A DNA stretch of 64,000 bases from Candidatus Eiseniibacteriota bacterium. Lineage in GTDB: Bacteria > Eisenbacteria > RBG-16-71-46 > DASYSL01. Position 1 is the first letter of the stretch, and each line of letters starts with the position of its first letter. A model generated the notes under the pieces. It was given only the letters and a program-made list of their open reading frames with translations. It was not told the origin of the DNA and ran no database searches. The position numbers and the translations under genes were made by a program. The stretch lies in the NCBI GenBank assembly GCA_031413115.1, contig JANOEH010000024.1, forward strand, positions 336-64,335. The letters are read 5' to 3'. This document shows positions 16,925-54,802 of the stretch, piece after piece.

Positions 16925-17324
16925 CGGTCCGACCCTGCGCCTCCCGACGGTCCGGGCACGGACCATCCAGGAAGACCAGACTCGCAAGAATCACGCCCGT
17001 GTCTCACGGTGGGGAAGTCCGCCGGGCTTCCGTGTGATCCCTACCCTTGTTTCCGGGCACTTTCAGCCCGCTGCGAGGCGTACCTCAGGAAGTGCGAGAT
17101 GGACCCGTTCCCTGACTCGATGACCGGGTTGACCGCCAGCTTGGCAGGCAGCGCAATGCTCACTACTTCCATGACGCGGGAAGGGCATGGCGGCATCTGC
17201 GCAAAGTCGCCCGTACCGTCAATGCGCCGCATTGCGTCGATGATCCCTTCGCCGGAGTGCTACACTTGTTGCCCCGCCGGGCTTGAGCGAACGGCTCCGG
17301 TCGCACGAGCATCGCGGAGGCAAC

Positions 17325-18215
17325 ATGGCTCGACATCACGGATTCGCCGGCGCGATACGTTTCCGGGCGGTTGCCGGCATCGTCCTGGCCACGCTCCTGG
17401 CGGCGGGCCCGGCGCTCGGCGCTTCGAACACGATCCTCATCACGGAAGTCGAGGCCGATCCGGTCCAGCTCGGCTTCGACTCGCCCTTCGAGTGGTTCGA
17501 AATCCAGAACATCAGCGACCAGACGCGCACGCTCACGGACTGGACGATGGCCGACAACCAGGCCTCGGACGCGCTCCCGACGATCGTGCTCGGGCCCGGG
17601 GAATGTGTCGTTCTGGCCACGAACGGCTCGAACTTCAGCACATCGCATCCGGGCTATTCCGGGAGGGTCGTCCAGGTCGGAAGCATCGGCGCCGGCCTCG
17701 AGAACGCCGCGGACTTCATCGTTCTCCGGGACGACTTGGGGACCGACGTCGACTGCGTCTCCTGGGGAACGAGCACGACCTGCTTCAGTCCCGCAGCCGC
17801 CGTCCCCGCGGCGAACACCGCCGTCACCCTGCAGCGTGCATCGACGGTGGACACGGATTCCGGTGCCGATTGGGCGAGCAACACGAACGAGACTCCCTGC
17901 CCCGGGGCCGTCGGCGTGTCGGATCCGCATTCGAGAGTCGGTGGCCCCCGCATCACCATCACCCCGAACCCGGGCTTCGGGCGGACCACGATCTCATGCT
18001 CCGGTGTCGCCGCGGGCCCGTTGGTGGTCGCGATCCATGACGCCACGGGGCGACGCATCCGGACGCTGCGCGACGAGGGCTCAGTATCGACGCGGAGCAT
18101 CGCCTGGAATGGGCTCGACGAGCAGGGCCGCGCCGTCCCCGCAGGATTCTATCTCGTCACCCTCCCGAAACGCCTCGGGGCGCCGGGGGCGGGACGATTC
18201 CTCCTGCTGCGGTGA
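17325..18215 (+). CDS. Lamin-tail-domain (LTD) protein with C-terminal FlgD-Ig/T9SS-type sorting-like domain
   Basis: Signal peptide; ILITEVEADP...FEWFEIQN...LTDWT matches LTD; C-terminus ...ITITPNPGFGRTTIS...GRRIRTL...WNGLDEQGRAVPAGFYLVTL...RFLLLR resembles FlgD Ig-like/Por_Secre_tail. Confidence 0.75.
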   Translation: MARHHGFAGAIRFRAVAGIVLATLLAAGPALGASNTILITEVEADPVQLGFDSPFEWFEIQNISDQTRTLTDWTMADNQASDALPTIVLGPGECVVLATNGSNFSTSHPGYSGRVVQVGSIGAGLENAADFIVLRDDLGTDVDCVSWGTSTTCFSPAAAVPAANTAVTLQRASTVDTDSGADWASNTNETPCPGAVGVSDPHSRVGGPRITITPNPGFGRTTISCSGVAAGPLVVAIHDATGRRIRTLRDEGSVSTRSIAWNGLDEQGRAVPAGFYLVTLPKRLGAPGAGRFLLLR

Positions 18216-29596: not shown

Positions 29597-31066
29597 CTAG
29601 TCGGCCCGGCGGACCCGCCCGCGTTCGATCACGCGCACGCCGATCGCCCGATCGGTACAGAAGATGTCGCTCACCTCACGCTGGTTGAAGCCGGCCCTCC
29701 AGGGGGCCTCGCCCGCGGGGGGCGCCGCCAGCGCGCTCGAGACCGCCTGGTTCCACTGCACGACACACCGGCTCAGGTCGAAGCGCAACCGGCTCTTCGC
29801 CTGTTCGAGCAATTCGTCGAGCGCTGCCCGCAGGGCCATGGCTTCCCCCGCCGGCACGAGGTCCTCCACCGCCTGGCGCGACTCCTCACTCCAGGCGAGG
29901 TCGGGGAGCTCGAGGGCGAAGTCGGGCTCGGCGCAGTGCACCTTGCCGACGAGGAATGCGCGGCCGGTCAGGGCCCCCTCGAGCTCGAGCTCGAGGGCGA
30001 GGCGATCGCGCGCGCCGCGCACCGTTGCGCCGGCCACGCGGAGCGATTCCCCACCGCCCGTCCCGATGGGGGCCGCGATGCCGACCAGGCGCGAGGCGAT
30101 CTCCGCGAAGTCCACCCAGCAGTCGACCGGCACGTACGTGTCGGAATCGAACAGTCGCTGTGTGGGCGCCCCGGGGAACTCGACCGCGGTCCCGTTCGCG
30201 CTCGGCAGGATCGTCGGAGCGGCTTCAAACGCGAGATCGATGACCAGCGCGTCGCCCTCGAGACGGGGGCGTTCGGCGCGAACCTCGCCCGGGCGCCAGT
30301 GCAGCCACGCCCCGCCACCCAGCCGCACGGGCCGGGCGAGCCCGGCGTGCAGCGCGTTCACCCGGGGCGCCAGATCGGTGGCGGCCGTGAGCGAGTCGAG
30401 GGTGGGAAGGAGGTGCGCGATGAACCGGCTCTTGATGCGATCGTCGACCAGCTTGGTGAAATTGATGGCCGGGGGCCTGGGTTTGCAGCGCGTGGGGTAG
30501 ATCACCGCCAGCGGACTGCTGCGGGATTCGAGGCGCCAGCCCTCGCCCCAGGCGAAGCGGGTCATGACGCCCACCAGGCCGGTCAGCGAATCGGCCTCGA
30601 CGCCGCACGACGTCGGGGCGAAGCCTTCGCCCTCGATGTCGAGTCGGTAGTGGACGGTGGTTCGTGTATAGAGCGTGTCGCCCCGGGGATCGCTCGCGAG
30701 GCTTCCCCGCAGGATCGGCCCACGCCAGCGCACTCCGGCGCGGGCGGCCTCGCGCTCCTCTTCTTTCCAGACTTCCTCGGGCGTCACCTGCTCCGCGATG
30801 CCGGCGGCGCGGATCTCCCGGGGAAGGAGGCGATCGAGTTCGTGGCGGTACGCCTCGATCGGTACGGTGAGCCGCGCCTGCAGATAGGAGCGCGGCGTCG
30901 CCGCCGGGCCCTCGCCCGGAGGAAGGGTGGGGGGAGCGACCGCGGGAAGCTGCAGCGCGGCGGCGCGCCCGCTGTCCGGGCGCCCGAGCATGGTGATTCC
31001 GGCGAGCACGAGAAGGCGCACGAATGCCGTGCGCGGGCGCGAATGGCTTCGGGAGATCGACGACAC
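29597..31066 (-). CDS. DUF4403 family exported protein
   Basis: ~489 aa from GTG 31066 (GGAGGG upstream; start uncertain); signal-like N-terminus; no catalytic motifs recognised. Confidence 0.6.
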   Translation of the reverse strand: MSSISRSHSRPRTAFVRLLVLAGITMLGRPDSGRAAALQLPAVAPPTLPPGEGPAATPRSYLQARLTVPIEAYRHELDRLLPREIRAAGIAEQVTPEEVWKEEEREAARAGVRWRGPILRGSLASDPRGDTLYTRTTVHYRLDIEGEGFAPTSCGVEADSLTGLVGVMTRFAWGEGWRLESRSSPLAVIYPTRCKPRPPAINFTKLVDDRIKSRFIAHLLPTLDSLTAATDLAPRVNALHAGLARPVRLGGGAWLHWRPGEVRAERPRLEGDALVIDLAFEAAPTILPSANGTAVEFPGAPTQRLFDSDTYVPVDCWVDFAEIASRLVGIAAPIGTGGGESLRVAGATVRGARDRLALELELEGALTGRAFLVGKVHCAEPDFALELPDLAWSEESRQAVEDLVPAGEAMALRAALDELLEQAKSRLRFDLSRCVVQWNQAVSSALAAPPAGEAPWRAGFNQREVSDIFCTDRAIGVRVIERGRVRRAD

Positions 31067-31170
31067 GTAGGAGGGCCCTCCGGCGGTACCGGCTACAACA
31101 GGACGAAGGGGGCGAGCTTCCGCCCCCTTCGCCGGTGTGCGACGCGGCGGATCATCCCGCCGCGAATCGA

Positions 31171-31986
31171 TCAACGATAGTTGTTCTTGATGGTGCCCCA
31201 GCTCGACCGCAGCGCGGGCGTCGAGGGCGGGCACTGCCTGCAGCTCGGCACGATCACTCCGCCGATGGCCGCGCACTGCCCGACAGGCAGCGGCGCGCAG
31301 GTGTAGACGCCGGCAGGGTCCACCGTGCAGCAGAGTTCCTGGTTCGGCGCCGAGAGCAGGTCCGGGGCTTCCGGGCCGTCTCCGGTGGGATAGTTGACGA
31401 CGTCAGTCTGACCATCGTTCTGCCAGGTGTGGTACCACCCGGTGCTGATCGTGACGAGGCGCGGCAGGGTCGAGAACGAGTAGACCTCGGTCTGGCCCGG
31501 GAGCGTGCCACCGCCGACCCCCGCTCCGCCCGAATTGGTGAGATCCCACTCGACCGGCAAGCCCGAGCAGCAGCCAATCAGCCACGGGCCGATGCCATCG
31601 GGAGCGGTCACGTTCGCGAGGTCGGGGACGGCACCGGGAAGCGCGAGCTCGAAGCCCGAGAATCCGTTCGACGACCCAGGGTTCGGCTCGAACCCGCCGT
31701 TCGTCACCGTGTACACCCACTGGTACTTGGTGAAGTCGCCGAGGTAGTTGTTGAAGACATCCACCTTGATGACCACGCCAAACGGATAGAAGTGCGTATT
31801 CGAGAAGATCGGCCCGCCGTTCGGCTGGACGACACCGGACCACTTGACGGCGTCCGCATCCGGTGGCGAAATCTGGGGCGGGTAGGATGCGGCAAGGATC
31901 GGCCCGGCGAAGGTGACCAGGAGCAGCGCAGGGAGTGCGAGCGTGCGGACCAATCGACGTGCAAAGAGCTGAAGCATTGGAGGCAT
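31171..31986 (-). CDS. Secreted Cys-rich protein ending in SSWGTIKNNYR tail
   Basis: 271 aa; signal peptide; 8 Cys incl. CC pairs; weak GEVED-like GQTEVYSF; C-terminal dodecapeptide shared with ORF 42188..43120. Confidence 0.65.
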   Translation of the reverse strand: MPPMLQLFARRLVRTLALPALLLVTFAGPILAASYPPQISPPDADAVKWSGVVQPNGGPIFSNTHFYPFGVVIKVDVFNNYLGDFTKYQWVYTVTNGGFEPNPGSSNGFSGFELALPGAVPDLANVTAPDGIGPWLIGCCSGLPVEWDLTNSGGAGVGGGTLPGQTEVYSFSTLPRLVTISTGWYHTWQNDGQTDVVNYPTGDGPEAPDLLSAPNQELCCTVDPAGVYTCAPLPVGQCAAIGGVIVPSCRQCPPSTPALRSSWGTIKNNYR

Positions 31987-39702: not shown

Positions 39703-40755
39703 CTACTTCGTCGCCGCGGCCTTCGCCGGCGCCTTGGCCGGCGGGTCGGCGGCGTTGTGGTAGTTGTTCGCGATCTCCTTTTCCAGCGCGTCGGCCCGCG
39801 CCGTGCTCATCGAGTGGTCGCCGTAGAAGAAGTTCGTGACCGAATCCTGGTCGCCGTACTTCTCGGCGAACCGCCGCCACAGCAGCGGCGCCTTCTTGTA
39901 GTCGTAGCCAGCCTCGTAGACGTAGCGGAGGCCGACGCGATCCGCCTGGTCCTCGTAGTCGCGGCTGTACGAATTGTTGAATGCCGAGTAGCCGAGTTGC
40001 GTCGCCTGCTGCGCGAGGGTGCGCGCCGTCGAGTTGCCGATCATTCCGGCGTTGGCCGCCGCGAGCTGGCCCGCAAGCCCGCTCATCTGGTTCTTGCTGG
40101 CCTGCCGCCGGCTGTGCTCGTAGGTGGCGTGCGCGATCTCGTGGCCGAGCACGACGGCCAGCTCGTCGTCGTCAAGGTCCGCCATGATCCCCGTGTAGAC
40201 GTAGATCGAGTAGTTGGCCATGGCCATCGCGTTCCACTCCGGATTCTCGACCACGTAGACGCGGACGCCCGCGGGATCGATGTAGTCCGGCAGGACGCGA
40301 TTGACGATGTTGCGTGCGCGATCGACCTGCGGGCCGCCGGTGAGCAGCTTGCCCATGCTCTGCGTCTTCCCATCCGCACCCTGCTCGACGATGGCCTGGG
40401 CGGCGACCCACGTCGACTCGGCCATGTTCGTGCCCACGAGGATCTTCTCCTCGGTGGCGTCGACGTTGTTGGCCTTGGCCTCGAACTCGGAGGCCTTCAC
40501 CGTGCCGTCGGCCTGGCGCACTCCCCTGGCGCGCGCGCCGTAGCCCAGCGGAACGTCGGCGGCCGAGGTGAAGCCGGCCGCCTTGAACTTCATGCCGGGC
40601 AGCGGCTCGACGCGCTGGCCGTCGATGATCAGGTAGGGGCCCTTGTGGAACTCGAGCACGCCCTCGACCTTGATCTTCTTGTCGGCGGCGGCCGCCGGAA
40701 CGGCGAGGGCGGCGAGCAGCCCGAGCGCGATGAGCGACGGATGCAACGAACGCAT
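39703..40755 (-). CDS. M48 family zinc metallopeptidase (BepA/YfgC-like)
   Basis: ~350 aa from ATG 40755; signal peptide; HEIAHATYEH (HExxH) motif and downstream Glu; last gene of a 4-gene operon. Confidence 0.85.
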   Translation of the reverse strand: MRSLHPSLIALGLLAALAVPAAAADKKIKVEGVLEFHKGPYLIIDGQRVEPLPGMKFKAAGFTSAADVPLGYGARARGVRQADGTVKASEFEAKANNVDATEEKILVGTNMAESTWVAAQAIVEQGADGKTQSMGKLLTGGPQVDRARNIVNRVLPDYIDPAGVRVYVVENPEWNAMAMANYSIYVYTGIMADLDDDELAVVLGHEIAHATYEHSRRQASKNQMSGLAGQLAAANAGMIGNSTARTLAQQATQLGYSAFNNSYSRDYEDQADRVGLRYVYEAGYDYKKAPLLWRRFAEKYGDQDSVTNFFYGDHSMSTARADALEKEIANNYHNAADPPAKAPAKAAATK

Positions 40756-40781: not shown

Positions 40782-41405
40782 TTACGGAGCGCCGCGCGCG
40801 TTCTCGCGGCGGACGCTCTCGATGACTTCGCTGTAGTAGGGCTTCTCCTTGAGGCTGGCGTATTCGCCGGGAAACATGACGAACGTGATGTCCGCGGAAT
40901 GGTCGGAGAAGCCGTTGAGGACGATCGCGCAACGGTGGCCGCCCAGCAGCCGGGTGTTGTCGATCATCGGGAAATCGAAGTAGCTCACCTTGAACGCCGC
41001 GGTCTTGGTCTGCCGTCCCAGCGCCGGGTCCGGCGTCTCGACCGTGAGCTGGACGTCGAGCTCCTTGCTGACCCGGTCGACGGCGTTGATGTCGATCCGG
41101 ATCGTCGACTGCAGCGAGTCGAGCATGAGCGTGGCCTCCTCGAGTGACGTGCCCTCGGGGTCCCCGGTCAGGTCGATGCTGCGGTCGAACTTGCGGCCGA
41201 CGCCCTCGAGCACGATCACCTGCTTGCGACCGATCTCGCGGGCGACACGCTCCAGCCGGTCCATGTAGTCGACGTAGTCGGCGCGAACGCCCGCGTTGGG
41301 CGCGGCGGTGATGCCCCGCGCGATGCGGCGCTTGAGGTCGAGGAACAGGGGCTTCAGGTTCAGCGACTCGTGGAAGTTGTAGACCAGCAGCTCGAGGTTG
41401 AGCAC
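40782..41405 (-). CDS. Hypothetical protein (207 aa), no family recognised
   Basis: GTG start overlapping upstream ORF's end by 8 nt; good GC3; soluble, no TM. Confidence 0.55.
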   Translation of the reverse strand: MLNLELLVYNFHESLNLKPLFLDLKRRIARGITAAPNAGVRADYVDYMDRLERVAREIGRKQVIVLEGVGRKFDRSIDLTGDPEGTSLEEATLMLDSLQSTIRIDINAVDRVSKELDVQLTVETPDPALGRQTKTAAFKVSYFDFPMIDNTRLLGGHRCAIVLNGFSDHSADITFVMFPGEYASLKEKPYYSEVIESVRRENARGAP

Positions 41406-41412
41406 GCTGTTG

Positions 41413-41712
41413 TCAAGGTCGCCACAGGTCCGAGGCGCTGACGAAGCTGCCGATGATCGACTGGAACATGTCCTTGCGCAGCGCGCTCTCCGACTCCTCG
41501 CGTCGGCTCATCAGCTCGGAGTAGAGCCGCGCGTTCGTCTCGGCGGCCTGGCGCCGGTCGAGGAACTCCGACGACTTGAATCCGAGCACGCCGATCGCGA
41601 GCGCGGTGAACAACCCGCCCAGCGGCTGGACGAGGACCGCCAGCTTGTCCCAGGAGTCGCGCCTGGCCGGCACGTGCACGTGCGGCGGCTCGTGACCGGG
41701 GGTCTCGCTCAC
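41413..41712 (-). CDS. Small transmembrane protein (~99 aa)
   Basis: GTG 41712 overlaps stop of upstream gene (GTGA); one TM (LAVLVQPLGGLFTALAIGVLGF) then charged helix; high GC3. Confidence 0.4.
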   Translation of the reverse strand: MSETPGHEPPHVHVPARRDSWDKLAVLVQPLGGLFTALAIGVLGFKSSEFLDRRQAAETNARLYSELMSRREESESALRKDMFQSIIGSFVSASDLWRP

Positions 41713-42056
41713 TTGCGGCGCAGGCTCGGCTTGCCATCCTTCTTCTCGAGGATCAGGTCGTAGCGCGTCGCTTCCTTGTTCGAGAAGATGGCGAGCTCGA
41801 CCGGCTGCTTCTCGTACACGAGGGTGAGCGTGCACTTGCCTTCGCCCTTCACCATCAGCTTGAACGAGCCGAACTTGTCGGTCGTCGTCGTGTCGGCGAC
41901 GGTCGTGGCGCCGGGCAGCGAGACCTTGATCTTGACGCCCTCCGGCAGCGGCTTTCCGTCGAGCTTGATGTCGCCGAAAATGCGTCCCGCGGCGGCGGGC
42001 TGCGCGCCGACAAGGACCAAGCCGACGGTGAGGACGGCGAGAACGAATGAACGCAT
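41709..42056 (-). CDS. Small secreted carboxypeptidase-regulatory-like (transthyretin-fold) domain protein
   Basis: 115 aa; AGGAG RBS; signal peptide; GRIFGDIKLDGKPLPEGVKIKVSLPG...TTTDKFGSFKLMV..GKCTLTLVY matches CarbopepD_reg-like pattern; Lys-rich. Confidence 0.6.
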   Translation of the reverse strand: MRSFVLAVLTVGLVLVGAQPAAAGRIFGDIKLDGKPLPEGVKIKVSLPGATTVADTTTTDKFGSFKLMVKGEGKCTLTLVYEKQPVELAIFSNKEATRYDLILEKKDGKPSLRRK

Positions 42057-42187
42057 GGGACGCTCCTGGGGTCGGGCCTGGCGGGAGGCAATCGGGGCGC
42101 GGCAGCCACCGCGGGGGTGGCTGCGCGCGCTCACGGGTATTCTAGGACGGTTTGCCGATCCGGGCCAGAGCCTTGCTCGCGGCCATA

Positions 42188-43120
42188 TCAGCGATAGGTG
42201 CTCTTGACCCGTCCCCACGACGACCCCGCGCTCGGGGTCGCGGCCTCGATGGCGAAGGGGTAGTCCTCGGTCTCGCCGTTTCGAATCTGGCCACCGGGCA
42301 TCGCCGCCGTGCCGTTCCACGGGAAGTCGACGCCGACCGGTTCCTGCGAGATCGAGATCCGCGTCCACGCCGGGCCCACGTTCGGCCCGACGAGAAATGC
42401 CGGCGAGACCATCGAGTTGCAGCCGGGCAGGAGCGTGATCGGATGATTGCGCACCGCCCACTCCCATGCGCAGCCGCCGGTCGGCGGGGGGCAGGTGAAG
42501 TTGTCGTTCCAGTCCCCGTCGGTGTTGAAGTCGACCAGGATGTTGAGGAAGCCCTGCGCCACCGCATGACAGCTGTACGCCTCGTACGGGACCGTCGCGG
42601 GAGTGCAGGCCACGAACGTCGGTTGGGCCAGCAGCCCCGCGTCGGAGCCGTCGGCGAGGCACTCGTCCTGCTCGAACGAAAGCGGCGGATATCCCGGAGT
42701 GACACAATCGGTGGTGATGGCCGGATTGCAGGACGAGGCGCCCCCGCCGAACGGGTTCGTCTTGCCGTCGGCATCGTCGTCGATGCCCATCGGGCCGGTG
42801 TAGCACCCCAGCCAGAAGCTCCCCGGTACGGCGAGGAAGTGCTTCACGTACCCGGTCGGCCCCGGCGGGGAGCTGACGGCCGGGCAGGTGATCGTCTGGG
42901 TCCCGACGCCGCCGGGTAGCGAGCAGGTCGGGAAGTTGCCGATCGCACTTCCCGCCCAGGTGGGATAAGCGGTGAAGCTCTCGGGGGCGTCGCCCCAATC
43001 ATCGAGAAAGCGGAGGCAGTCGTCCGGGCCGTCGACGTCGGTCGCGGCAGCGGGGGGGGCCAGGAGGGTCGCCAGCACGAGCAGGCTCAATGCGGCGAAC
43101 CCGAAGCGATGAAAGGACAT
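42188..43120 (-). CDS. Secreted Cys-rich GEVED-like protein ending in SSWGRVKSTYR tail
   Basis: ~310 aa from ATG ~43120; signal peptide MSFHRFGFAALSLLVLATLLAPPAAA; 12 Cys; FPWNGTAAMPGGQIRNGETEDYPF resembles GEVED domain; C-terminal tail as in 31171..31986. Confidence 0.65.
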   Translation of the reverse strand: MSFHRFGFAALSLLVLATLLAPPAAATDVDGPDDCLRFLDDWGDAPESFTAYPTWAGSAIGNFPTCSLPGGVGTQTITCPAVSSPPGPTGYVKHFLAVPGSFWLGCYTGPMGIDDDADGKTNPFGGGASSCNPAITTDCVTPGYPPLSFEQDECLADGSDAGLLAQPTFVACTPATVPYEAYSCHAVAQGFLNILVDFNTDGDWNDNFTCPPPTGGCAWEWAVRNHPITLLPGCNSMVSPAFLVGPNVGPAWTRISISQEPVGVDFPWNGTAAMPGGQIRNGETEDYPFAIEAATPSAGSSWGRVKSTYR

Positions 43121-44925: not shown

Positions 44926-45100
44926 ATCGCCGGATCCCGCCTTGAATGCCCCCCGCGGAAGTGTGAGAGTTCGCACGATCTCGCAGGGTGCCCGGAGCCC
45001 CCGGATGACGCCGCTCCCACGCGCCCCTGCAACTCCGAAGTGCCCCGCAGCGTAGCCACCCCGTCCGTCCCACCTGCAGCTCCCGTCCCGGAGGTTCTCC

Positions 45101-45991
45101 GTGCTTCGCATTCAGGGTCTGGTGAAGGTCTATCCCGGTCCGGTCACCGCGCTCGCGGGGCTCGAACTCGATGTTCCCGCGGGCATGTTCGGCCTCCTCG
45201 GTCCCAATGGCGCGGGCAAGTCCACGCTGATGAAGATCCTCGCCGGCCTGCTCGAGCCTACCTCCGGCTCGATCACGCTCGACGGGGAGGACGTGGTGGC
45301 GCACCCCGAGCGCGTGCGCGCCCGCCTCGGCTACCTGCCCCAGGAGTTCGGCTTCTATCCCCACCTGAGCGGCGAGCAGATGCTCATCCACCTGCTGCGG
45401 CTCAAGGGCGTCGATGCGCCCGGTGGCATCAAGGCGCTGGCGCGCGAGCTGCTCGAGCGCGTGAACCTGGGCTTCGCCGCCCGCCGCGCGGTCAAGTCGT
45501 ACTCCGGCGGCATGCGCCAGCGTCTCGGTGTCGCCCAGGCCATCGCGGGAAGTCCGCGCCTCGTGATCGTCGACGAGCCGACGGCGGGGCTCGATCCCGA
45601 GGAGCGCCTGCGTTTCTATCACCTGCTGACCGAACTGGCGCAGGACCGGATCGTGCTCCTCTCGACGCACATCGTCGAGGATGTCGCCGTCCTCTGCCCG
45701 CGCTTCGCCGTGATCCGCGGTGGGCGCCTGCTGGTGACCACGACGCCGCATGCAGCGCGCCAGGAGCTGGCTGGCGCCATGTTCGAGGGCACTGCCGACG
45801 GCGCCGCGCTGGCAGAACTGCGTGCCCAGGGCCGCGTCACGCAGTCCGTGCTGGTCGAGGGCGTCAACCGCGTGCGCGTGCACCAGGCCGAGGGCACGCC
45901 GCCGGCGGGCTTCGAGCCCGTTGCGCCCACGCTCGAGGATGCCTACCTCGTGCTCATGAACGAGAGCGCGCTCGTGGCGGCCCGGGCATGA
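45101..45991 (+). CDS. ABC transporter ATP-binding protein
   Basis: GTG 45101 with GGAGG upstream; Walker A GPNGAGKST, signature YSGGMRQRL, Walker B LVIVDEP. Confidence 0.9.
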   Translation: MLRIQGLVKVYPGPVTALAGLELDVPAGMFGLLGPNGAGKSTLMKILAGLLEPTSGSITLDGEDVVAHPERVRARLGYLPQEFGFYPHLSGEQMLIHLLRLKGVDAPGGIKALARELLERVNLGFAARRAVKSYSGGMRQRLGVAQAIAGSPRLVIVDEPTAGLDPEERLRFYHLLTELAQDRIVLLSTHIVEDVAVLCPRFAVIRGGRLLVTTTPHAARQELAGAMFEGTADGAALAELRAQGRVTQSVLVEGVNRVRVHQAEGTPPAGFEPVAPTLEDAYLVLMNESALVAARA

Positions 45992-48900
45992 AGCGGTTCC
46001 TCGAGGTTCTGTGGCTCGACCTGCGGGAGATTCCGCGACGCCCGCTGTTCTGGGTGCTGGTGCTGATCCTCGGCTTCATGGCGTTCGCGCTGTCCAACGG
46101 CAACGCGCGCATCGCCTCGGGCGACATGCGCGTGGGCGGCGATCGCGCGTGGCTCACCAGCGAGTTCGCGCAGACGCAGCTCCTCATGGTGCTGGTCGCC
46201 ATCCTCTATTCGTTCTTCGTCTCGATCGCGGCGGGCATGATCTTCATCCGTGACGAGGAGCAGAAGGTCGGGCCGTTGTTGCACGCGACCCCGCTCACGC
46301 CCGGCCAGTACGTGTGGGGCAAGTACTGCGCGGTGCTGCTGGGATTCTTCGGCGTGCTCGGCGTCCACCTGATGACCACGATCTTGTTCAACCACGCGAT
46401 GCCCCACGCCTCGAACCAGGAGGCGATCGGGCCGTTCGTTCCGTGGAACTACCTGAAGCCGGCGATCATCTTCGCCGTGCCGATGCTGGTGTTCATCTCG
46501 GGAACCGCCTACGCGCTCGGGGCCTTCACGCGAAAGGCCGCGCTGGTGTTCGTCGTGCCGATCGCGCTGGTGATTCTTGGCACGTTCTTCCTCTGGGACT
46601 GGTCGCCCGTGTGGCTGTCGCCGTTGGCCGAGCGCGTCCTGCAGTTCATCGACCTGAGCGGTGTGCGCTGGATCAACGAGAACTGGCTCGTGGTCGATCG
46701 CGGCGTGGCGTTCTACAACCGCGCTCCGGTCGGCCTCGATGCGCTGGCGATCGTGCAGCGCTTCGCCTGCCTCGGGCTCGGTCTGGGCGCGGTCGGCCTG
46801 GTACACCTGCGCTTCCCGGCGCTCTTGCGTGGCCCGCGCACGGTCAAGGTGAAGCGCGGGGCACGTGCCGAGGCGCTGGCGCCGGACACGGCGAGCGCCG
46901 GCCTCGAGCGAAGGTCGGCCGGACTGGCGATGCTGAACATGACTGCAAAGGCGCCGGGCTTCCTGCGGTCGGCGTGGAACGTGGCGCGCGTCGAGTTGAT
47001 GGAACTGAAGAGCCACCCGGGGCTTTACCTCTTCGTTCCGCTCATCCTGGTCCAGACGCTGGGCGAGGTGGTCTCGACGGGCGCGTTCGACACGCCGCTG
47101 CTGATGACGCCCGGCAGCCTCGCCGTGCGGCAGATGGGCGCCTTGACGCTGCTCCTGTGCATGCTGATCCTGTTCTACACCACCGAATCGCTGCAGCGCG
47201 AGAAGTCGGCCGGGTTCGCGCCACTGTTCCTCTCGGCGCCCATCCCGACTTCCGCCATGCTCCTGGGCAAGTCGGTGGCGAACGTGGTCGTCGGCGTGAT
47301 CATCATGCTTGCGGCGTTCGCGGGATCGATGATCCTGCTGCTCGTGCAGGGAACGGTGCCGATCCGCCTCGAGCCGTTCCTCCTGTTGTGGGGCGTGCTG
47401 CTCATCCCCACGTTCCTGCTGTGGACCGCGTTCGTGTGCGCCACGTTCACCGTCACGTCGAGTCGCTATGCGACGTACGCAATCGGACTCGCCGCGATGT
47501 CGCTGACCGGCTGGTTCCAGATGCGCGGCAAGATGAGCTGGGTGACCAACTGGGACCTGTGGGCCTCGACGGTGTGGAGCGACATCAGCGTGCTCGAACT
47601 GGACCGCCAGGCGCTGGTGCTCAATCGCCTGCTGGCGCTGGCGCTGGCGGCACTGTTCTTCGCCATCGCCGTGCGCTTCTTCCCGCGCAGCGAGCGCGAC
47701 GCCGCCCGGATCGTCCACGCGCTGAGCCCGCAGCGCCTCGCCGGCCACGCCCTGCGCCTGGCGCCGCTGGTGATCGCTCCCCTGGTTCTCGCGATCGTCC
47801 TCGGGTTCGCCGTGCACGGCGGCCGGGGCGGAGCGGTCGCGCAGAAGAAGGAGCGCGACTACTGGAAGAGGAACAGCGCCACCTGGCGTGATGCGAAGCT
47901 GCCCACGCTGACCGCCGTCGAGCTCGACCTCGAGGTCGAGCCGGACAAGAGCGCGCTCACGTCGTGCGGCACGTACGCGCTGGTCAATCGCACGGCCGAC
48001 ACGCTGGCGGCAATCCCGCTCACCGGCGGACTGCACTGGAAGGACGTGCACTGGACCGTCGACGGCGAGAGCGCGAAGGTGGAGGACCGGGCCGGATTGT
48101 GGGTCGTGCACCCGAAGCGGCCGCTCGCGCCGGGCGATTCGGTCCGCGTCGGGTTCGCGTTCCACGGGCGTTTCCCCGACGGTGTGAGCAAGAACGGCGG
48201 GACCCTGATGGAGTACGTGCTGCCTTCGGGCGTGGTGCTGACCGGGTTTGCCAGCACGGGGATGGCGCCGCTGCTCGGTTACCAGCCCGAGGTGGGCGTC
48301 GAGGAGGATCGCAACAAGCCCGATCCGCGCGAGTATCCGGAGAATTGGTGGACGCGGACGCTGCCGGCGGGCTCACCGATGTTCGACGGCTGGATCACGA
48401 CTCGCCTGCGCGTGACCGGGCCGGCCGACATGCAGCACAATGCCACCGGATTCTGCGAGTCCGACGTGGTGAAGGACGGCCGGCGCACGACAGTCTGGCA
48501 GAGCGATGCTCCCGTGCGGGTCTTCAACGTCGTCATGGGCCGCTGGCAGGTGAAGAAGCAGAACGGCGCAGCGGTCTACTACGATGCGCGTCACCCGTAC
48601 AACGCGCAGGAGATGCTCGACGCCCTGGTCGCCGCCCGCCGCTGGTACGGCGAGTGGTTCGCACCCTACCCGTATCGCGAACTGCGCCTCTCCGAGTTCC
48701 CGGGGCTCGCCAACTACGCGCAGGGTCCGCCGACCAACATCACGTTCTCGGAGAACATCGGCTTCCTCACCAAGAGCGAACCCAAGGCGAACCTGGCGTT
48801 CTGGGTCGCCGCCCACGAAGCGGCACACCAGTGGTGGCCGCTGATCGTGATGTCCGCCGATGGCCCGGGCGGCGAGGTCCTGTCCGAGGGGATGGCGCAC

Positions 48901-49626
48901 TTCTCGACCATCCTGCTGGTCGAGCAGGCACGCGGACTCGAGCAGCGCCTGGCGTTCTGCCGGCAGATCGAGGATCGCTACGGCAATCTCAGGCGCAGGG
49001 ACAGCGAGCGCCCGCTCGTGCGCATGGATGGCCAGCTTCGCGAAGAGGGTCAGATGATCTACGACCGGGGCGGGTTCGTGCTGTGGATGATGTTCCGGCT
49101 GATGGGCGACGAGGCGGGGCGCGCCGGCCTGCGTGACTACATCGCGACCTACCGCGACTCCGAGGACAAGCCGCTGCTCGAGGACCTGCTCCACGTGATG
49201 CGTCGGCATGCGCCGGATCCCGCGGCGTTCGACGCCTTCACGGCGCAGTGGTTCTTCGACACGGTGGTGCCGGAGTTCCTGGTCGACACGCCGGCGCTCG
49301 CGCACGAGGGCGACACGTGGACCACGGTGGCGAAGGTGCGCAATGTCGGCAGCGGGCGCCTGAGGGTGGTCGTCGCGGCCACGCGTGGCGAACGCTTCCC
49401 CGACGCGAAGAAGACCGCGAAGGGCGAGCCCTACGCCGATGCGCGGACCGTCCTCGAGCTCGGACCGGGCGAGGAGAAACCGGTCATGATCGAGAGCGGC
49501 TTCGAGCCCGAGAGAATCGTCGTCGACCCGGACGTCGAGGTGCTCATGCTGCGGCGGGCGAAGGCGCAGGTGCCGATCGAGAACAAGCCCGCGGCCGGGG
49601 CGGCGCTTGCCGGGAGCGATCGGTAG
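45988..49626 (+). CDS. ABC-2 type permease fused to M1-family (aminopeptidase N-like) zinc peptidase domain
   Basis: ATGA overlap with ATPase; ~12 TM segments in first ~650 aa; C-terminal domain with FSENIGF (GAMEN-like), HEAAHQWW (HExxHxW) and SEGMAHF (second Glu) motifs. Confidence 0.85.
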   Translation: MKRFLEVLWLDLREIPRRPLFWVLVLILGFMAFALSNGNARIASGDMRVGGDRAWLTSEFAQTQLLMVLVAILYSFFVSIAAGMIFIRDEEQKVGPLLHATPLTPGQYVWGKYCAVLLGFFGVLGVHLMTTILFNHAMPHASNQEAIGPFVPWNYLKPAIIFAVPMLVFISGTAYALGAFTRKAALVFVVPIALVILGTFFLWDWSPVWLSPLAERVLQFIDLSGVRWINENWLVVDRGVAFYNRAPVGLDALAIVQRFACLGLGLGAVGLVHLRFPALLRGPRTVKVKRGARAEALAPDTASAGLERRSAGLAMLNMTAKAPGFLRSAWNVARVELMELKSHPGLYLFVPLILVQTLGEVVSTGAFDTPLLMTPGSLAVRQMGALTLLLCMLILFYTTESLQREKSAGFAPLFLSAPIPTSAMLLGKSVANVVVGVIIMLAAFAGSMILLLVQGTVPIRLEPFLLLWGVLLIPTFLLWTAFVCATFTVTSSRYATYAIGLAAMSLTGWFQMRGKMSWVTNWDLWASTVWSDISVLELDRQALVLNRLLALALAALFFAIAVRFFPRSERDAARIVHALSPQRLAGHALRLAPLVIAPLVLAIVLGFAVHGGRGGAVAQKKERDYWKRNSATWRDAKLPTLTAVELDLEVEPDKSALTSCGTYALVNRTADTLAAIPLTGGLHWKDVHWTVDGESAKVEDRAGLWVVHPKRPLAPGDSVRVGFAFHGRFPDGVSKNGGTLMEYVLPSGVVLTGFASTGMAPLLGYQPEVGVEEDRNKPDPREYPENWWTRTLPAGSPMFDGWITTRLRVTGPADMQHNATGFCESDVVKDGRRTTVWQSDAPVRVFNVVMGRWQVKKQNGAAVYYDARHPYNAQEMLDALVAARRWYGEWFAPYPYRELRLSEFPGLANYAQGPPTNITFSENIGFLTKSEPKANLAFWVAAHEAAHQWWPLIVMSADGPGGEVLSEGMAHFSTILLVEQARGLEQRLAFCRQIEDRYGNLRRRDSERPLVRMDGQLREEGQMIYDRGGFVLWMMFRLMGDEAGRAGLRDYIATYRDSEDKPLLEDLLHVMRRHAPDPAAFDAFTAQWFFDTVVPEFLVDTPALAHEGDTWTTVAKVRNVGSGRLRVVVAATRGERFPDAKKTAKGEPYADARTVLELGPGEEKPVMIESGFEPERIVVDPDVEVLMLRRAKAQVPIENKPAAGAALAGSDR

Positions 49627-51495: not shown

Positions 51496-51823
51496 TCATG
51501 ATGCCTCCTCCTCGAACGAGCGCGCGAATGCCGCGAGCGCATCGGTCCACATGCGATCGGCGTACTCGCGAAGCGCGGCGATCCCGGTGGGATCGGCCGT
51601 GTAGATTCGGCGACGGCCCTCGGCGCGCGCTTGGACGAGCCGGGCGCGCCGGAGCACGGCGAGATGCTGCGAAACAGCGGGCTGCGACACCCCGAGCCCG
51701 CGGGTCAGTTCGCCCACAGAATGCGGCCTCCGGCTGACCCGCTGGACGGCCCCCCCCGGCTCCGTGCTACGCTTGTCGGGCCCATTCGAGGATTTGAGTC
51801 CCCCAAGGACGGTTGCCGCTCAT
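51496..51823 (-). pseudogene. ArsR/SmtB-family wHTH regulator, apparently disrupted (frameshift/insertion at G8 tract)
   Basis: Open frame from GTG 51717 encodes only recognition helix+wing (GELTRGLGVSQPAVSQHLAVLRRARLV); putative N-terminal 18 codons (ATG 51823, MSGNRPWGTQILEWARQA*) lie in +1 frame before TAG; C8/G8 homopolymer at 51750-51757 between them. Confidence 0.4.
51750..51757. repeat. C8 (G8 on minus strand) homopolymer tract inside disrupted arsR-like gene
   Basis: Eight consecutive C at 51750-51757; lies between the two reading frames of the arsR-like fragments. Confidence 0.6.
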
Positions 51824-51835
51824 TCCGGGAGTCCC

Positions 51836-54802
51836 ATGAACGGTTCCATGCCGCCTCGGCGATCGCCGCGAGTCCTTCGTATCCCGCGCGCCGCCGCCAC
51901 GCTCGTGCTGATGTTCTCCCTCGTGCCGGCGCTGCTTGCCGCTTCGACCGGTCCCGACGATCGCGTGCTTGCGCCGATCCCGCTGCCGGTCCTGCGCCCG
52001 GGATTTCCGATCACGGCCAGCACGATTCCCTTCACCTACCCGCCGGTGATGGCCGACCTCGACCTCGATGGTCGCTCGGAGATCATTGCCATCGACGACG
52101 AGGGCAAGATTTTCGTCGTCCGCAACGACGGCGCGCGACACGGTGCATTTCCCAAGACTCTCGGTGTGCCGCCCAGCGGTCCGATCGCAGTTGGAGATGT
52201 TGACGGCGACGGCTTTCTCGAACTCGTGGCGGTCGGGATCAATGGGCGCGTGAGCATCTTCAGCGACGAGGGAGCGATCGAGGCGGACCTCGCCCGCCTC
52301 CCGTGGGCGCCGGTCGGCGCCGCCGTCCTGACCGAGTTCGACACCAGCGGCAAGCTCGCCATTCTCGTCGTTACGGCCGACGGCACACTGCATGCGCTGC
52401 GCGGCGAGGGCGGGGAGTTTCCGGGCTGGCCGGTGAACGGAAGCGCGGTCGCCGCGTCACCACCCTTCGCCTACATCGGCCCGGACAACTTTCCACGGGT
52501 CGGCTACCTCGGCGCCGCGCCGGATCGGGCGCAGATCTTCTTCACCTACGGCGACCTCGACACCGTGGCGTCTTACACGCCGACGTCGCCTTTCTCGGCG
52601 GCGCGACCGGTCGCGGGCCTGCGCGCGATGTCCCTCGGTTTTACCGACGCCGAGCACCAGTACACGTTCACCAGGTCCGGGAAGCTGACGCGGCTCGATC
52701 CCGACCTGCTGAACGGCGCGACGGTCGTGACGCCGCTGGCGCAGCTCCCGGACGACAGCGTCTTCGTCCAGCCCGCGATGATGGACGCGAACGGAGATCT
52801 CGTTCCCGAGCTTGCGGTGCTGAGCGTCCGCGGCGATACGACGCAGGTGTGGCTGCTCGACGGAGCCACCGGGAATCCACTTACCGGATTCCCGCGCCGG
52901 TATCTCGAGGCGCAGCCCGTCGGCGGAATCGTGTGCGCCGACGTGGGGGACAACAACGCGGCGGAAATGATCTTCAACCGCGGCGGTTCGCGCATCTCGT
53001 GCGTGCGCACGAACGGCACCGAGGCATGGACGCTCGGGGGACTTCCGTCGATCGGCGGTCCGGCACTCGGCGATCTCGACGGGGACGGTGGTCCCGACCT
53101 TGCGGTCGTCACCACGACGGGCAAGATCTACGCTTACACGCTGGGTCTATCGGGGACCGGGCCCAGGGCGATGGAGTGGACGAACGCCGGCGGATCGCCG
53201 CGCCACGAAGGGCGCCACCAGATGCGCGATCGCGCCGTCGTCCACTCGTTCTGGCCACCGCCGATCACGCCGGCGGATGCGTTCGTCACGCGGCCCGTGA
53301 TGGGCGGGTTCGACGACGATGGTCGTCCCGACGTCCTGTGGAGCGACTACCTGACGGGCAAGACCTGGGGGTTCGCCGTCGGCGCCGGTCCGATGCCCGG
53401 GATGCCACAGACTTACGGACGGGGCGCCGTGCTCGACGCGCCCGCGGTCGGAGACGTCACCGGCGACGGCATCTATGAAAGCGTTCAGGGCACGGCCCAG
53501 GGCTACCTGGTGTGGGGCAATCGCACCGGCACGACCGACTTCATGCTGATCGACAACGGTCGACAGCTTTCCCCACCGTCGCTGGCGGACCTCAACGCCG
53601 ACGGCGTGCTCGACGTGATCGTCGGCTCGAGCACGGGACGCCTCTACGCGGCGAACCTGAAGACCAAGACGCTGCTCCCCGGGTTCCCCGTGACGACGAC
53701 CGGCGCGATCGTGTTGCCGGCCGCGCTCGGCGACGTCAACGGCGACGGGCAGACCGACATCGTGGTGGTCGGCGGCCCGCGCACGATCTACGCGTATCCG
53801 CGCACCGGTGCGACGGCGCTCACGGGCTGGCCCCGGCAGTTCCCCTCGGGGCATGCGCTCGGGCAGCCGATCCTCGTGCCGATCGCGGGCCAGTCGGGCC
53901 TGTGCGTGGCATTCGCCCGCACGACGGGTGTCGACTCGGTGACCGCGAGCGTCGTCGGCGCGAGCGGGGCGCCGTTGCCGGGCTGGCCGCGGCGGCTCTT
54001 CAATGCGCTCAACATCCTGAGCGGCCCGGTGGCCGGGCCGTTCGACAACGATGCGAGCGTGGATCTCGCCTTCGCCACGGGCGGCGACACGGTGATCGTG
54101 TTCAACGCGATCGGCAATAGGTTGCTCACCAAGGCCCTGCCCACGCCGGGCAGCATCGAGCTCGCCGCGATGGTCGACCTCGACCTCGACCTGCGCCCGG
54201 ACCTGGTCGTGGTCAGCGACGAGTCGGTGATCATCGGCCTGCGCTACGACGGCCTCACCGTGCGTTCATTCACGCGGTTGCTGTTCGGGTTCGAGGCTGG
54301 TGCGACCCCGGCGTTCGGCGACCTGGGCAACGACGGCATCCTCGACATGGCGATCAGCGACCTGGGCTTCCCGCTCGTCTACTCGTGGGGCCCGGGCTCG
54401 TGGAACGGGAACACGGCGCCGTGGCCGATGAAGGGGCACGATCGCTACCGCACGCATGCCTACTCCGGTCCGACCGTGATCGGCGTCGACGGCCCGGGAG
54501 CCGCGGGTCCGCCCGCCCGCGGCACGGGCGCGGTCCGCGCCGTTCCGAACCCGACGCAGGGTGCGGTGGCGTTCGCACACACGCGCGCGCTCGCCGGCGC
54601 CTACGAGGCGGCGATTTTCGATGTACGTGGACGGCGCGTCCGCACGCTCGCGGCGGGGACGCTGCCCGCAGGCGGCGAGGCGGTGACGTCGACGTGGGAT
54701 GGCCGCGACGAGGCAGGGCACGAGGTGCAGGCGGGGATCTACTTCTACCGCGTGCGCGATGCGGCGGGGACGCTCGGCGAAAAGGTCGTGCGCCTGCGTT
54801 GA
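51836..54802 (+). CDS. Large FG-GAP/VCBS-repeat beta-propeller protein with C-terminal FlgD-Ig/T9SS-type domain
   Basis: ~988 aa; signal peptide; many DxDGDG/FG-GAP-like repeats (GDVDGDGFLELV, GDLDGDGGPDLAV, GDVNGDGQTDIVV...); C-terminus VPNPTQGAVAF...FDVRGRRVRTL...WDGRDEAGHEVQAGIYFYRV...KVVRLR. Confidence 0.8.
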   Translation: MNGSMPPRRSPRVLRIPRAAATLVLMFSLVPALLAASTGPDDRVLAPIPLPVLRPGFPITASTIPFTYPPVMADLDLDGRSEIIAIDDEGKIFVVRNDGARHGAFPKTLGVPPSGPIAVGDVDGDGFLELVAVGINGRVSIFSDEGAIEADLARLPWAPVGAAVLTEFDTSGKLAILVVTADGTLHALRGEGGEFPGWPVNGSAVAASPPFAYIGPDNFPRVGYLGAAPDRAQIFFTYGDLDTVASYTPTSPFSAARPVAGLRAMSLGFTDAEHQYTFTRSGKLTRLDPDLLNGATVVTPLAQLPDDSVFVQPAMMDANGDLVPELAVLSVRGDTTQVWLLDGATGNPLTGFPRRYLEAQPVGGIVCADVGDNNAAEMIFNRGGSRISCVRTNGTEAWTLGGLPSIGGPALGDLDGDGGPDLAVVTTTGKIYAYTLGLSGTGPRAMEWTNAGGSPRHEGRHQMRDRAVVHSFWPPPITPADAFVTRPVMGGFDDDGRPDVLWSDYLTGKTWGFAVGAGPMPGMPQTYGRGAVLDAPAVGDVTGDGIYESVQGTAQGYLVWGNRTGTTDFMLIDNGRQLSPPSLADLNADGVLDVIVGSSTGRLYAANLKTKTLLPGFPVTTTGAIVLPAALGDVNGDGQTDIVVVGGPRTIYAYPRTGATALTGWPRQFPSGHALGQPILVPIAGQSGLCVAFARTTGVDSVTASVVGASGAPLPGWPRRLFNALNILSGPVAGPFDNDASVDLAFATGGDTVIVFNAIGNRLLTKALPTPGSIELAAMVDLDLDLRPDLVVVSDESVIIGLRYDGLTVRSFTRLLFGFEAGATPAFGDLGNDGILDMAISDLGFPLVYSWGPGSWNGNTAPWPMKGHDRYRTHAYSGPTVIGVDGPGAAGPPARGTGAVRAVPNPTQGAVAFAHTRALAGAYEAAIFDVRGRRVRTLAAGTLPAGGEAVTSTWDGRDEAGHEVQAGIYFYRVRDAAGTLGEKVVRLR

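Follow-up and report, generated by a model that had tools for sequence, protein, structure and literature searches.

We analyzed a 64,000-nucleotide stretch of contig JANOEH010000024.1 from Candidatus Eiseniibacteriota bacterium (the window, at its full length) around the gene at 42188..43120 on the reverse strand, whose exported product ends in a short conserved peptide, here called the C-terminal tag. The analysis shows the tag, which is carried by exported proteins, to be a peptide-level element, modular and strictly C-terminal, that is positionally interchangeable with two established sorting signals, PEP-CTERM and the T9SS (type IX secretion system) C-terminal domain (CTD). The target gene, its parts, and the other gene of the window that carries a tag were located as follows (–, reverse strand).

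42188..43120 (–): target coding sequence, an intact open reading frame (ORF) of 310 codons (310 aa), stop codon TGA at 42188-42190
43043..43120 (–): signal peptide, residues 1-26, with cleavage predicted between AAA and TD, as read from the sequence
42548..43042 (–): N-terminal part of the module (residues 27-191), rich in Cys and with 9 of the 12 conserved Cys (alignment A1)
42257..42547 (–): beta-sandwich of GEVED type (residues 192-288), running from LNILVDFNTDGDWND to GETEDYP
42191..42244 (–): C-terminal tag AATPSAGSSWGRVKSTYR, residues 293-310, with a TP element, [ST][ST]WG, x[IVL]K, and xxYR
31171..31986 (–): other tail-bearing gene, 271 aa, ending PSTPALRSSWGTIKNNYR / SSWGTIKNNYR, with the tag at 31174-31227

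The frame of the target ORF is coding, since its GC content at third codon positions (0.87) lies far above that at second positions (0.58). The N-terminus of the product, MSFHRFGFAALSLLVLATLLAPPAAA followed by TD, is signal-peptide-like, with the predicted cleavage site after residue 26, and A26, D28, D30, and G31 reach at least 90% conservation in the family alignment of 102 sequences (alignment A1). The protein contains exactly 12 Cys (residues 35, 66, 79, 106, 131, 139, 154, 172, 184, 210, 217, and 234), all invariant or at least 90% conserved in the same alignment. A previous reading of the letters alone (the sequence-only reading) had described an exported, Cys-rich protein with 12 Cys and an SSWGRVKSTYR tail, and both descriptions were accurate: the tail forms residues 300-310, is conserved in the family, and is directly followed by the stop codon. 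The distance given there, ~25 residues from the GEVED-like string to the tail, was too long. The string, FPWNGTAAMPGGQIRNGETEDYPF, spans residues 266-289, the tail starts 10 residues after it, and just 21 residues remain after GETEDYP. In the AlphaFold2 model, the predicted local distance difference test score (pLDDT) was 91.7; the model places a helix at residues 3-20 and, in the tail, a short helix at residues 302-309 preceded by a low-confidence linker.

Relatives of the target were sought in a collection of 5.8 billion proteins. We found 160, nearly all of them ~300 aa long, and the organism names given by the sources were all Candidatus Eisenbacteria or Eiseniibacteriota. In the family alignment, a DxNxDGDWND segment and the GETEDYP string are invariant or at least 90% conserved, and G282, E283, E285, and D286 are invariant. 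The target itself scored 12.5 bits (E = 0.28) against the GEVED profile PF20009, below the Pfam gathering threshold of 24.4 bits, with residues 192-288 placed on profile positions 2-76 of 78, and a Pfam scan of the target at E ≤ 0.1 did not match GEVED. The profile matched 100 of the 102 aligned relatives at E ≤ 1 (best E-value 1.3e-7), and several homologues have a precomputed PF20009 annotation. Because the relatives match the profile although the target's own score is below threshold, the target is GEVED-like by family-level homology; the earlier assignment to GEVED is supported at this level.

The GEVED domain was defined from the NR3 region of the Streptococcus gordonii adhesin CshA (PMC10952558). 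In agreement with PF20009, the GE[TV]EDY string of the target ends a beta-sandwich, a DxNxDGDW-type segment lies before it, and the profile is nearly fully covered; a flexible segment follows the GEVED part, as in CshA-like proteins, in which the next domain starts 12-17 residues past the motif (PMC10952558). Unlike in CshA, the GEVED part of the target is fused to a 165-aa, 9-Cys N-terminal elaboration to give a module of ~270 aa, and the family consists of small single-module proteins rather than the stalk element of a giant fibrillar adhesin. The whole ~270-aa module, Cys-rich part and GEVED together, is a repeatable unit, as several relatives (P0004, P0009, P0024, and P0030) have two copies in tandem. 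Among secreted proteins with GEVED domains, the target protein is a new but ordinary one, and it is best explained as a Sec-exported, disulfide-stabilized surface or adhesin-type module in which a Cys-rich elaboration is joined to a GEVED beta-sandwich.

Conservation and distribution of the tag

The tag was retained by nearly all of the ~100 family members, while the linker before it varied. The consensus in the target family, x-[TV]-P-[TAV]-x-x-x-[ST]-W-G-x-[VLIM]-K-x-[LIM]-Y-R, shows conservation reaching upstream of the tail, and the family tails all have W, G, and K, with Y and R conserved to at least 90% (W302, G303, K306, Y309, and R310 of the target). The overall consensus of ~17 aa reads [TV]-P-[ATV]-x-x-[ST]-[ST]-W-G-x-[IVL]-K-x-[LIM]-Y-R-stop. 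Among relatives, the tag codons for Gly, Tyr, Arg, and Ser/Thr differ synonymously, indicating selection on the peptide and not on the DNA; conservation of the tag at the DNA or RNA level was ruled out by this variation. Together with the absence of the tail from loci of other phyla and the metagenome matches described below, these observations place it far outside what chance would produce.

A six-frame scan of the window detected two tail-bearing ORFs, the target and 31171..31986 (–), in agreement with the sequence-only reading, which had mentioned another tail-bearing gene; both proteins clearly have an N-terminal signal peptide. Across 78 genome loci encoding relatives, tail-bearing ORFs were confined to 37 Eisenbacteria-type loci (536 kb), and none was found in the 41 loci from other phyla (615 kb). 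Among taxonomically labeled genome contigs, the tag was seen almost exclusively in Eisenbacteria. Eight of the tail-bearing ORFs in the genome loci have unrelated N-terminal parts, for example, NHL-repeat proteins. GEVED-family relatives are also held by two loci labeled Candidatus Limnocylindria (L027 and L031, the latter with two tail genes) and by one labeled Gemmatimonadetes (L029), which may reflect binning contamination or a wider distribution of the tag.

Using a back-translated DNA pattern of the tag, we scanned a metagenome collection and obtained at least 133 matches on at least 120 contigs (loci L079-L198). Essentially each of the matches listed closes a long ORF, and tandem tail genes are common among them. 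Several features not imposed by the pattern recurred in the matches listed: [TV]P at positions –7/–6 from the Trp (68-79%), [ATV] at –5 (87%), [LIM] at +6 (73%), and exclusively Ser or Thr at –1; E and P were the commonest residues at –4 and –3. Upstream of these positions, and again among the matches listed, Cys was the commonest residue at –10 (in 33 of the 130 distinct tails) and at –11 (in 26), and 15 tails have it at –9. In those families, a disulfide may close the host domain, or the Cys may be part of the signal; the GEVED family has no upstream Cys at –9 to –11. A scan of contigs classed as viral in IMG/VR, intended as a negative control, was not clean: 11 contigs (L208-L218) had ORFs ending in the tag, and most of the 11 matches show the unimposed motif features and look like genuine tails. 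These contigs are either misclassified bacterial DNA or prophages, or they belong to Eisenbacteria phages encoding tag-bearing proteins.

Among 771 called genes, the motif was C-terminal, with at most four residues before the stop, in 111 of the 112 occurrences listed, and the remaining one lay five residues away. The 113 called tail genes fell into at least 62 BLASTP clusters without other detectable similarity. By a crude regular-expression test, signal-peptide-like N-termini were enriched among tail genes (56 of 96, versus 89 of 462 for the other genes), and a lipobox was not seen on the called tail genes. The tag could in principle be a structural part of the fold, such as its last strand or helix, shared through common descent of the proteins. 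It always adjoins a folded domain, often with a Cys 9-11 residues upstream, but it is carried by clusters that share no other similarity, a variable linker sets it apart from the domain, its pLDDT is lower, and it is dispensable, as homologues have other C-termini or tandem modules without a tag. A purely structural role is strongly disfavored, and we give it next to no weight.

The tag was not matched in Pfam and NCBIfam release 20, even at E ≤ 10, and we found nothing on sorting signals in Eisenbacteria in the literature searched. It therefore appears undescribed in these libraries and this literature.

Exchange of C-terminal ends and comparison with sorting signals

Evidence on the nature of the tag came from homologous proteins that end differently. 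An exhaustive search of 1.84 billion representatives with the core domain encoded by the other tail gene (31171..31986) gave 79 relatives. By a regular-expression tally, 27 of these have PEP-CTERM-like ends, three have T9SS-like CTDs, and five have tags, although at least one of the 27 PEP-CTERM-like ends looks like a false match. One relative, P0123, scored 27.1 bits against the PEP-CTERM model TIGR02595, above the cut-off of 16. In a MAFFT alignment, the VP...[ST][ST]WG of the tag lies over the VPEP[ST] of PEP-CTERM, with one invariant Pro common to both, and as far as this aligned site, the tag protein P0122 (216 aa) is co-linear with PEP-CTERM proteins of the same length.

A second exchange was found in the family of the target. 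Six proteins (P0083, P0105, P0080, P0107, P0109, and P0009) have the same GEVED-family module, but a FlgD_ig end (PF13860) replaces the tag: GETEDYP is followed by a short linker and then by a T9SS-CTD-type domain. Large multidomain proteins make up the more distant GEVED relatives, which come from Bacteroidota, Planctomycetota, Verrucomicrobiota, and Chloroflexota; T9SS-type CTDs end many of them, and none of these relatives from other phyla ends in the tag. The window itself encodes two FlgD_ig-ended proteins besides the tag proteins, indicating that the genome uses more than one C-terminal system.

51764..54802 (+): FG-GAP repeat protein, 1012 aa, with a FlgD_ig (PF13860) T9SS-like C-terminal end
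17283..18215 (+): lamin-tail-domain protein, 310 aa, with a FlgD_ig (PF13860) T9SS-like C-terminal end

The exchange of the tag with FlgD_ig and PEP-CTERM ends supports a role in sorting or anchoring, though for a signal that has no transmembrane helix. In line with what the sequence-only reading implied, the tail behaves like a C-terminal sorting-type element, the tag being modular, strictly C-terminal, and swapped with both types of end. A separate observation concerns NHL-repeat proteins, which bear the tag in three loci (L025 16960..18072, L032 11924..13057, and L187 465..1487); the segment before the tag in one of them weakly matches the NHL PEP-CTERM protein ScyF (NF035926, E = 4e-4), and these proteins are a possible further case of anchor swapping.

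The exchanges also bear on whether the tag could be a degradation or quality-control tag, read by a periplasmic tail-specific or PDZ protease and controlling the turnover of exported proteins. The tag is strictly C-terminal on an exposed flexible linker, and PDZ-containing Tricorn/S41 proteases are present in Eisenbacteria loci (e.g., L199). PDZ and tail-specific proteases usually read apolar free C-termini, however, whereas the tag ends in Arg and tolerates extra residues, and its replacement by PEP-CTERM and T9SS-like CTDs in homologues indicates localization over degradation. We regard a role in turnover as improbable.

Seven criteria have been proposed for small C-terminal sorting signals (bioRxiv 10.1101/2023.06.07.544157), and the tag agrees with five of them: location, multiplicity (two tags in the 64-kb window and up to three per 12-20 kb locus, as in L030, L025, and L031), signature residues (at least three near-invariant ones), signal peptides (provisionally), and unrelated carriers. 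In these respects it resembles LPXTG, GlyGly-CTERM, MYXO-CTERM, and PGF-CTERM, but it has no hydrophobic membrane-spanning segment, which defines that class, and the usual intramembrane sorting protease is for this reason unlikely to act on it. The 9 residues past the tag Trp include two or three basic ones, with a mean hydrophobicity of –0.43 to 0.12, and the end consists of a single terminal Arg and the invariant Lys four residues before it.

There is also a likeness to the PEP-CTERM/exosortase system (TIGR02595): both elements are found at the extreme C-terminus of many unrelated signal-peptide families, in several copies per genome, and at the same aligned position among relatives of the other tail gene. 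The [TV]P-x-(E)-(P)-[ST][ST]-W of the tag loosely resembles VPEP[ST][ST]. The differences are the lack of a transmembrane helix and of an Arg cluster and a spacing from the Pro to [ST][ST] that differs by one residue. With TIGR02595 at E ≤ 10, neither seven tag peptides nor the tag-bearing proteins P0121 and P0122 gave a match, with P0123 as the positive control, and this hidden Markov model (HMM) test ruled out PEP-CTERM membership of the tag, while the positional equivalence stays. Descent of the tag from PEP-CTERM by loss of the membrane anchor may be kept as a lead, and only as such, because of the negative HMM test.

In comparison with the T9SS-type CTD, the tag is likewise a transmembrane-less C-terminal element of Sec-exported proteins, the two are exchangeable, and the same genome uses both. 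The CTD differs in being folded and ~80 aa in size; the tag, ~17 aa long and mostly unstructured, shows no sequence match to it. No Pfam match to FlgD_ig (PF13860), under which such CTDs are annotated in Eisenbacteria and related phyla, was found in the target. The beta-signal of outer-membrane proteins follows the pattern polar-x-G-x-x-hydrophobic-x-hydrophobic. Inspection led us to reject this reading of the tag, in which Lys sits on a hydrophobic position.

Neighboring genes and candidate partners

The sequence-only reading had placed the target at the head of an operon ending in an M48 metallopeptidase and had proposed this peptidase, the DUF4403 protein next to the other tail gene, or both as partners that process the tail. 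The features concerned were located as follows.

42093..42135 (–): GC-rich hairpin of 14 bp without a U-tract in the spacer downstream of the target, a possible terminator or attenuator
41709..42056 (–): small beta-sandwich-like exported protein, 115 aa, encoded at the start of the downstream cluster
41413..41835 (–): small ORF with a hydrophobic segment, overlapping the preceding gene
40782..41405 (–): 207-aa protein, no family assigned
39703..40755 (–): M48 metallopeptidase, 350 aa, with a signal peptide and an HEIAH motif (PF01435)
29597..31276 (–): DUF4403 protein downstream of the other tail gene (PF14356, E = 3.8e-30), overlapping the 3' end of that gene

The distance of ~130 nt stated for the gap between target and cluster was correct, with 131 nt from the target stop to the next same-strand gene (start 42056), and the four downstream genes are tightly packed on the same strand. 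The position of the target as operon head is unproven: the strand is shared, but the gap contains a hairpin and the gene order is kept within the species only. A folding energy of –56.9 kcal/mol (z = –1.9) was obtained for the complete 131-nt spacer, a value that is not for the hairpin alone; the terminator scan did not flag the hairpin, which has no T run, and no sigma-70-like promoter was detected. The order of the target and the M48 cluster is kept in locus L001 of the same species (contig JANPEF010000002.1, 96% identical) and missing from 36 further loci of this family in Eisenbacteria.

The 115-aa protein of the cluster gave weak DUF6795/CarboxypepD_reg-like matches, all under the cut-offs, and a homologue was seen in L001 only; the 207-aa protein had no Pfam or NCBIfam match and, among 203 loci, a homologue likewise in L001 only. 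The small ORF between them is 82% identical in L001 versus 94-97% for its neighbors, and since the ORF as listed overlaps the previous gene, translation probably begins downstream of 41709.

The M48 protein matches PF01435 with 82.7 bits (E = 3.8e-23; cut-off 20.3), the HExxH being present as HEIAH. It belongs to a family of ~345-aa proteins (1,469 homologues), often with a DUF5666 N-terminal domain, that shows 54-65% identity across metagenome-assembled genomes (MAGs) labeled Eisenbacteria, Acidobacteria, Polarisedimenticolia, and Verrucomicrobiae. It shares with BepA and LoiP the M48 catalytic domain, the HExxH motif, and the N-terminal signal peptide, but has the DUF5666-type domain where BepA has a tetratricopeptide repeat domain, and its scores of 67.1 bits with the BepA model (cut-off 570) and 72.6 bits with the LoiP model (cut-off 365) lie far under the equivalog cut-offs, making it an equivalog of neither. 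Orthology to these housekeeping peptidases, named in the sequence-only reading as an observation that would speak against a tail-processing role, is thus not what decides the matter; the absent co-occurrence does. Five loci around M48 orthologues elsewhere, one of them in another Eisenbacteria MAG, have differing neighbors, and none contains a tail gene or a homologue of the 207-aa protein. As a side observation, the M48 gene in L001 (12503..13242) matches in two reading frames, which indicates a frameshift or an assembly error; the window copy is intact.

We used the M48 protein, the 207-aa protein, the two small ORFs, and the DUF4403 protein as tblastn queries against 198 loci (L001-L198), and the M48-cluster proteins and DUF4403 were matched in the conspecific L001 alone. 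The loci other than L001 hold 153 tail-bearing ORFs, 46 of them with at least 2.5 kb of downstream sequence, and 727 kb of flanking DNA. The suggested co-localization of tail genes with M48, DUF4403, or the 207-aa protein was therefore not found outside L001, except for DUF4403 on a further metagenome contig, L204 (1359..3753), on which the pair recurs with a tail gene 56% identical and a DUF4403 protein 23% identical. The reported adjacency of DUF4403 to the other tail gene is real, the gene lying directly downstream, although its true start is uncertain because the ORF overlaps the 3' end of 31171..31986. This pairing suggests a functional link specific to one family; it is a property of the family of the other tail gene and not of tail genes generally.

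For processing of the tag by M48 and/or DUF4403, with the target heading the operon, one can thus cite the shared strand, the short gap and tight packing, the conserved arrangement in L001, and DUF4403 following the other tail gene here and in L204. Against it stand the lack of an M48, 207-aa, 115-aa, or DUF4403 homologue near the 153 other tail ORFs, the spread of the M48 family over phyla when the tail is almost restricted to Eisenbacteria among labeled contigs, the orthologue neighborhoods without tail genes, and the hairpin in the spacer. The absent co-occurrence largely refutes the model, which we consider very improbable, and the adjacent M48 cluster is judged an unrelated neighbor outside the tail system. 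In practice the outcome is negative: neither the M48 peptidase nor DUF4403 is worth pursuing as a general tail-processing enzyme.

When all neighbors were clustered, non-tail families were present in few loci each, except for some that are abundant (Ser/Thr kinases, sigma-54 regulators, and ABC ATPases). In 10 of 37 Eisenbacteria loci (e.g., L012 3798..6938 and L023 6481..9840), a gene for a Ser/Thr protein kinase is found at most 10 kb from a GEVED-tail gene; in two loci only, the two are divergently adjacent, and the proximity of kinases was judged to be probably an effect of abundance. Elsewhere in the window, a very long ORF at 45040..49626 (+) has ABC-2 permease segments and a C-terminal M1 aminopeptidase-like domain and lies downstream of an ABC ATPase gene (45101..45991), and an ATPase 76% identical to the product of the latter is encoded ~7 kb from a GEVED-family gene in L012.

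Proposed role of the tag

On balance, we favor a model in which, after export, a conserved envelope factor would recognize the tag and direct the protein to localization at, or attachment to, the surface, probably removing the tag. The signal peptide would first drive export of the target protein, and the 12 conserved Cys would then form disulfides in the periplasm. With the tag held on a short Pro/Thr linker outside the folded domain, the envelope factor could bind it and direct the localization or attachment step; removal of the tag appears probable by analogy with PEP-CTERM and the T9SS CTD, given the positional equivalence of the three. On the surface, the GEVED module may act as a stalk or binding domain, as suggested by the GEVED of streptococcal CshA. 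A broader version is more tentative, and we put it forward as possible rather than probable: the tag may represent a new class of sorting signal of ~17 residues without a transmembrane segment, which Eisenbacteria would use instead of PEP-CTERM and in addition to T9SS-like CTDs, with exported proteins that bear it numbering on the order of tens in each genome. Such a signal would imply a sorting receptor or enzyme of its own, and the tag may derive from PEP-CTERM through loss of the membrane anchor.

Several observations weigh against sorting by a dedicated factor. The partner protein was not found, and in the neighbor clustering no non-tail gene family recurs near tail genes. The tag has neither the transmembrane helix nor the basic cluster that define the tripartite class, and the tripartite design fits every characterized small sorting signal, but not the tag (bioRxiv 10.1101/2023.06.07.544157). 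About 15% of tags bear one to four additional residues past YR, so a free C-terminal Arg is not strictly needed. The taxonomic restriction holds for labeled genome contigs, while the metagenome matches (GC 0.51-0.79) carry no label, and the phylum Eisenbacteria is uncultured. Finally, the hydrophobic moment of the tag is modest in either helix or strand geometry (0.34-0.52).

The last value also matters for the main rival explanation, in which the tag would be a self-sufficient interfacial anchor, a short cationic Trp/Tyr amphipathic peptide that binds the membrane interface or lipopolysaccharide without an enzyme or cleavage. C-terminal amphipathic helices tether PBP5 and MinD to the membrane in this manner. 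The short predicted helix at residues 302-309, detached from the fold, would suit such an anchor, as would a composition (W, Y, K, and R with one or two aliphatic residues) typical of interfacial peptides, the lack of a transmembrane helix, and the lack of a partner in the neighborhoods. The structured part is merely 9-10 residues long, however, with the modest moment given above, and W, G, K, Y, and R together with the upstream [TV]P are near-invariant across the at least 62 unrelated families. Constancy of this kind argues for a protein that reads the tag and against general amphipathicity, and we consider partner-free interfacial anchoring unlikely.

Small C-terminal sorting signals have repeatedly led to new envelope machineries, among them sortase, exosortase, archaeosortase, rhombosortase, myxosortase, and T9SS. 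If recognition by a dedicated envelope factor is the correct explanation, the receptor or enzyme for the tag would work unlike exosortases, sortases, rhombosortases, and T9SS. The tag is found in a widespread soil and sediment phylum without a cultured member. It provides a simple sequence marker for Eisenbacteria proteins that are exported or lie at the surface, and phylogenetic profiling could use it as a query. A conserved tag that is exchanged for PEP-CTERM and T9SS-like domains, yet has no membrane span, would suggest another machinery with a different logic.

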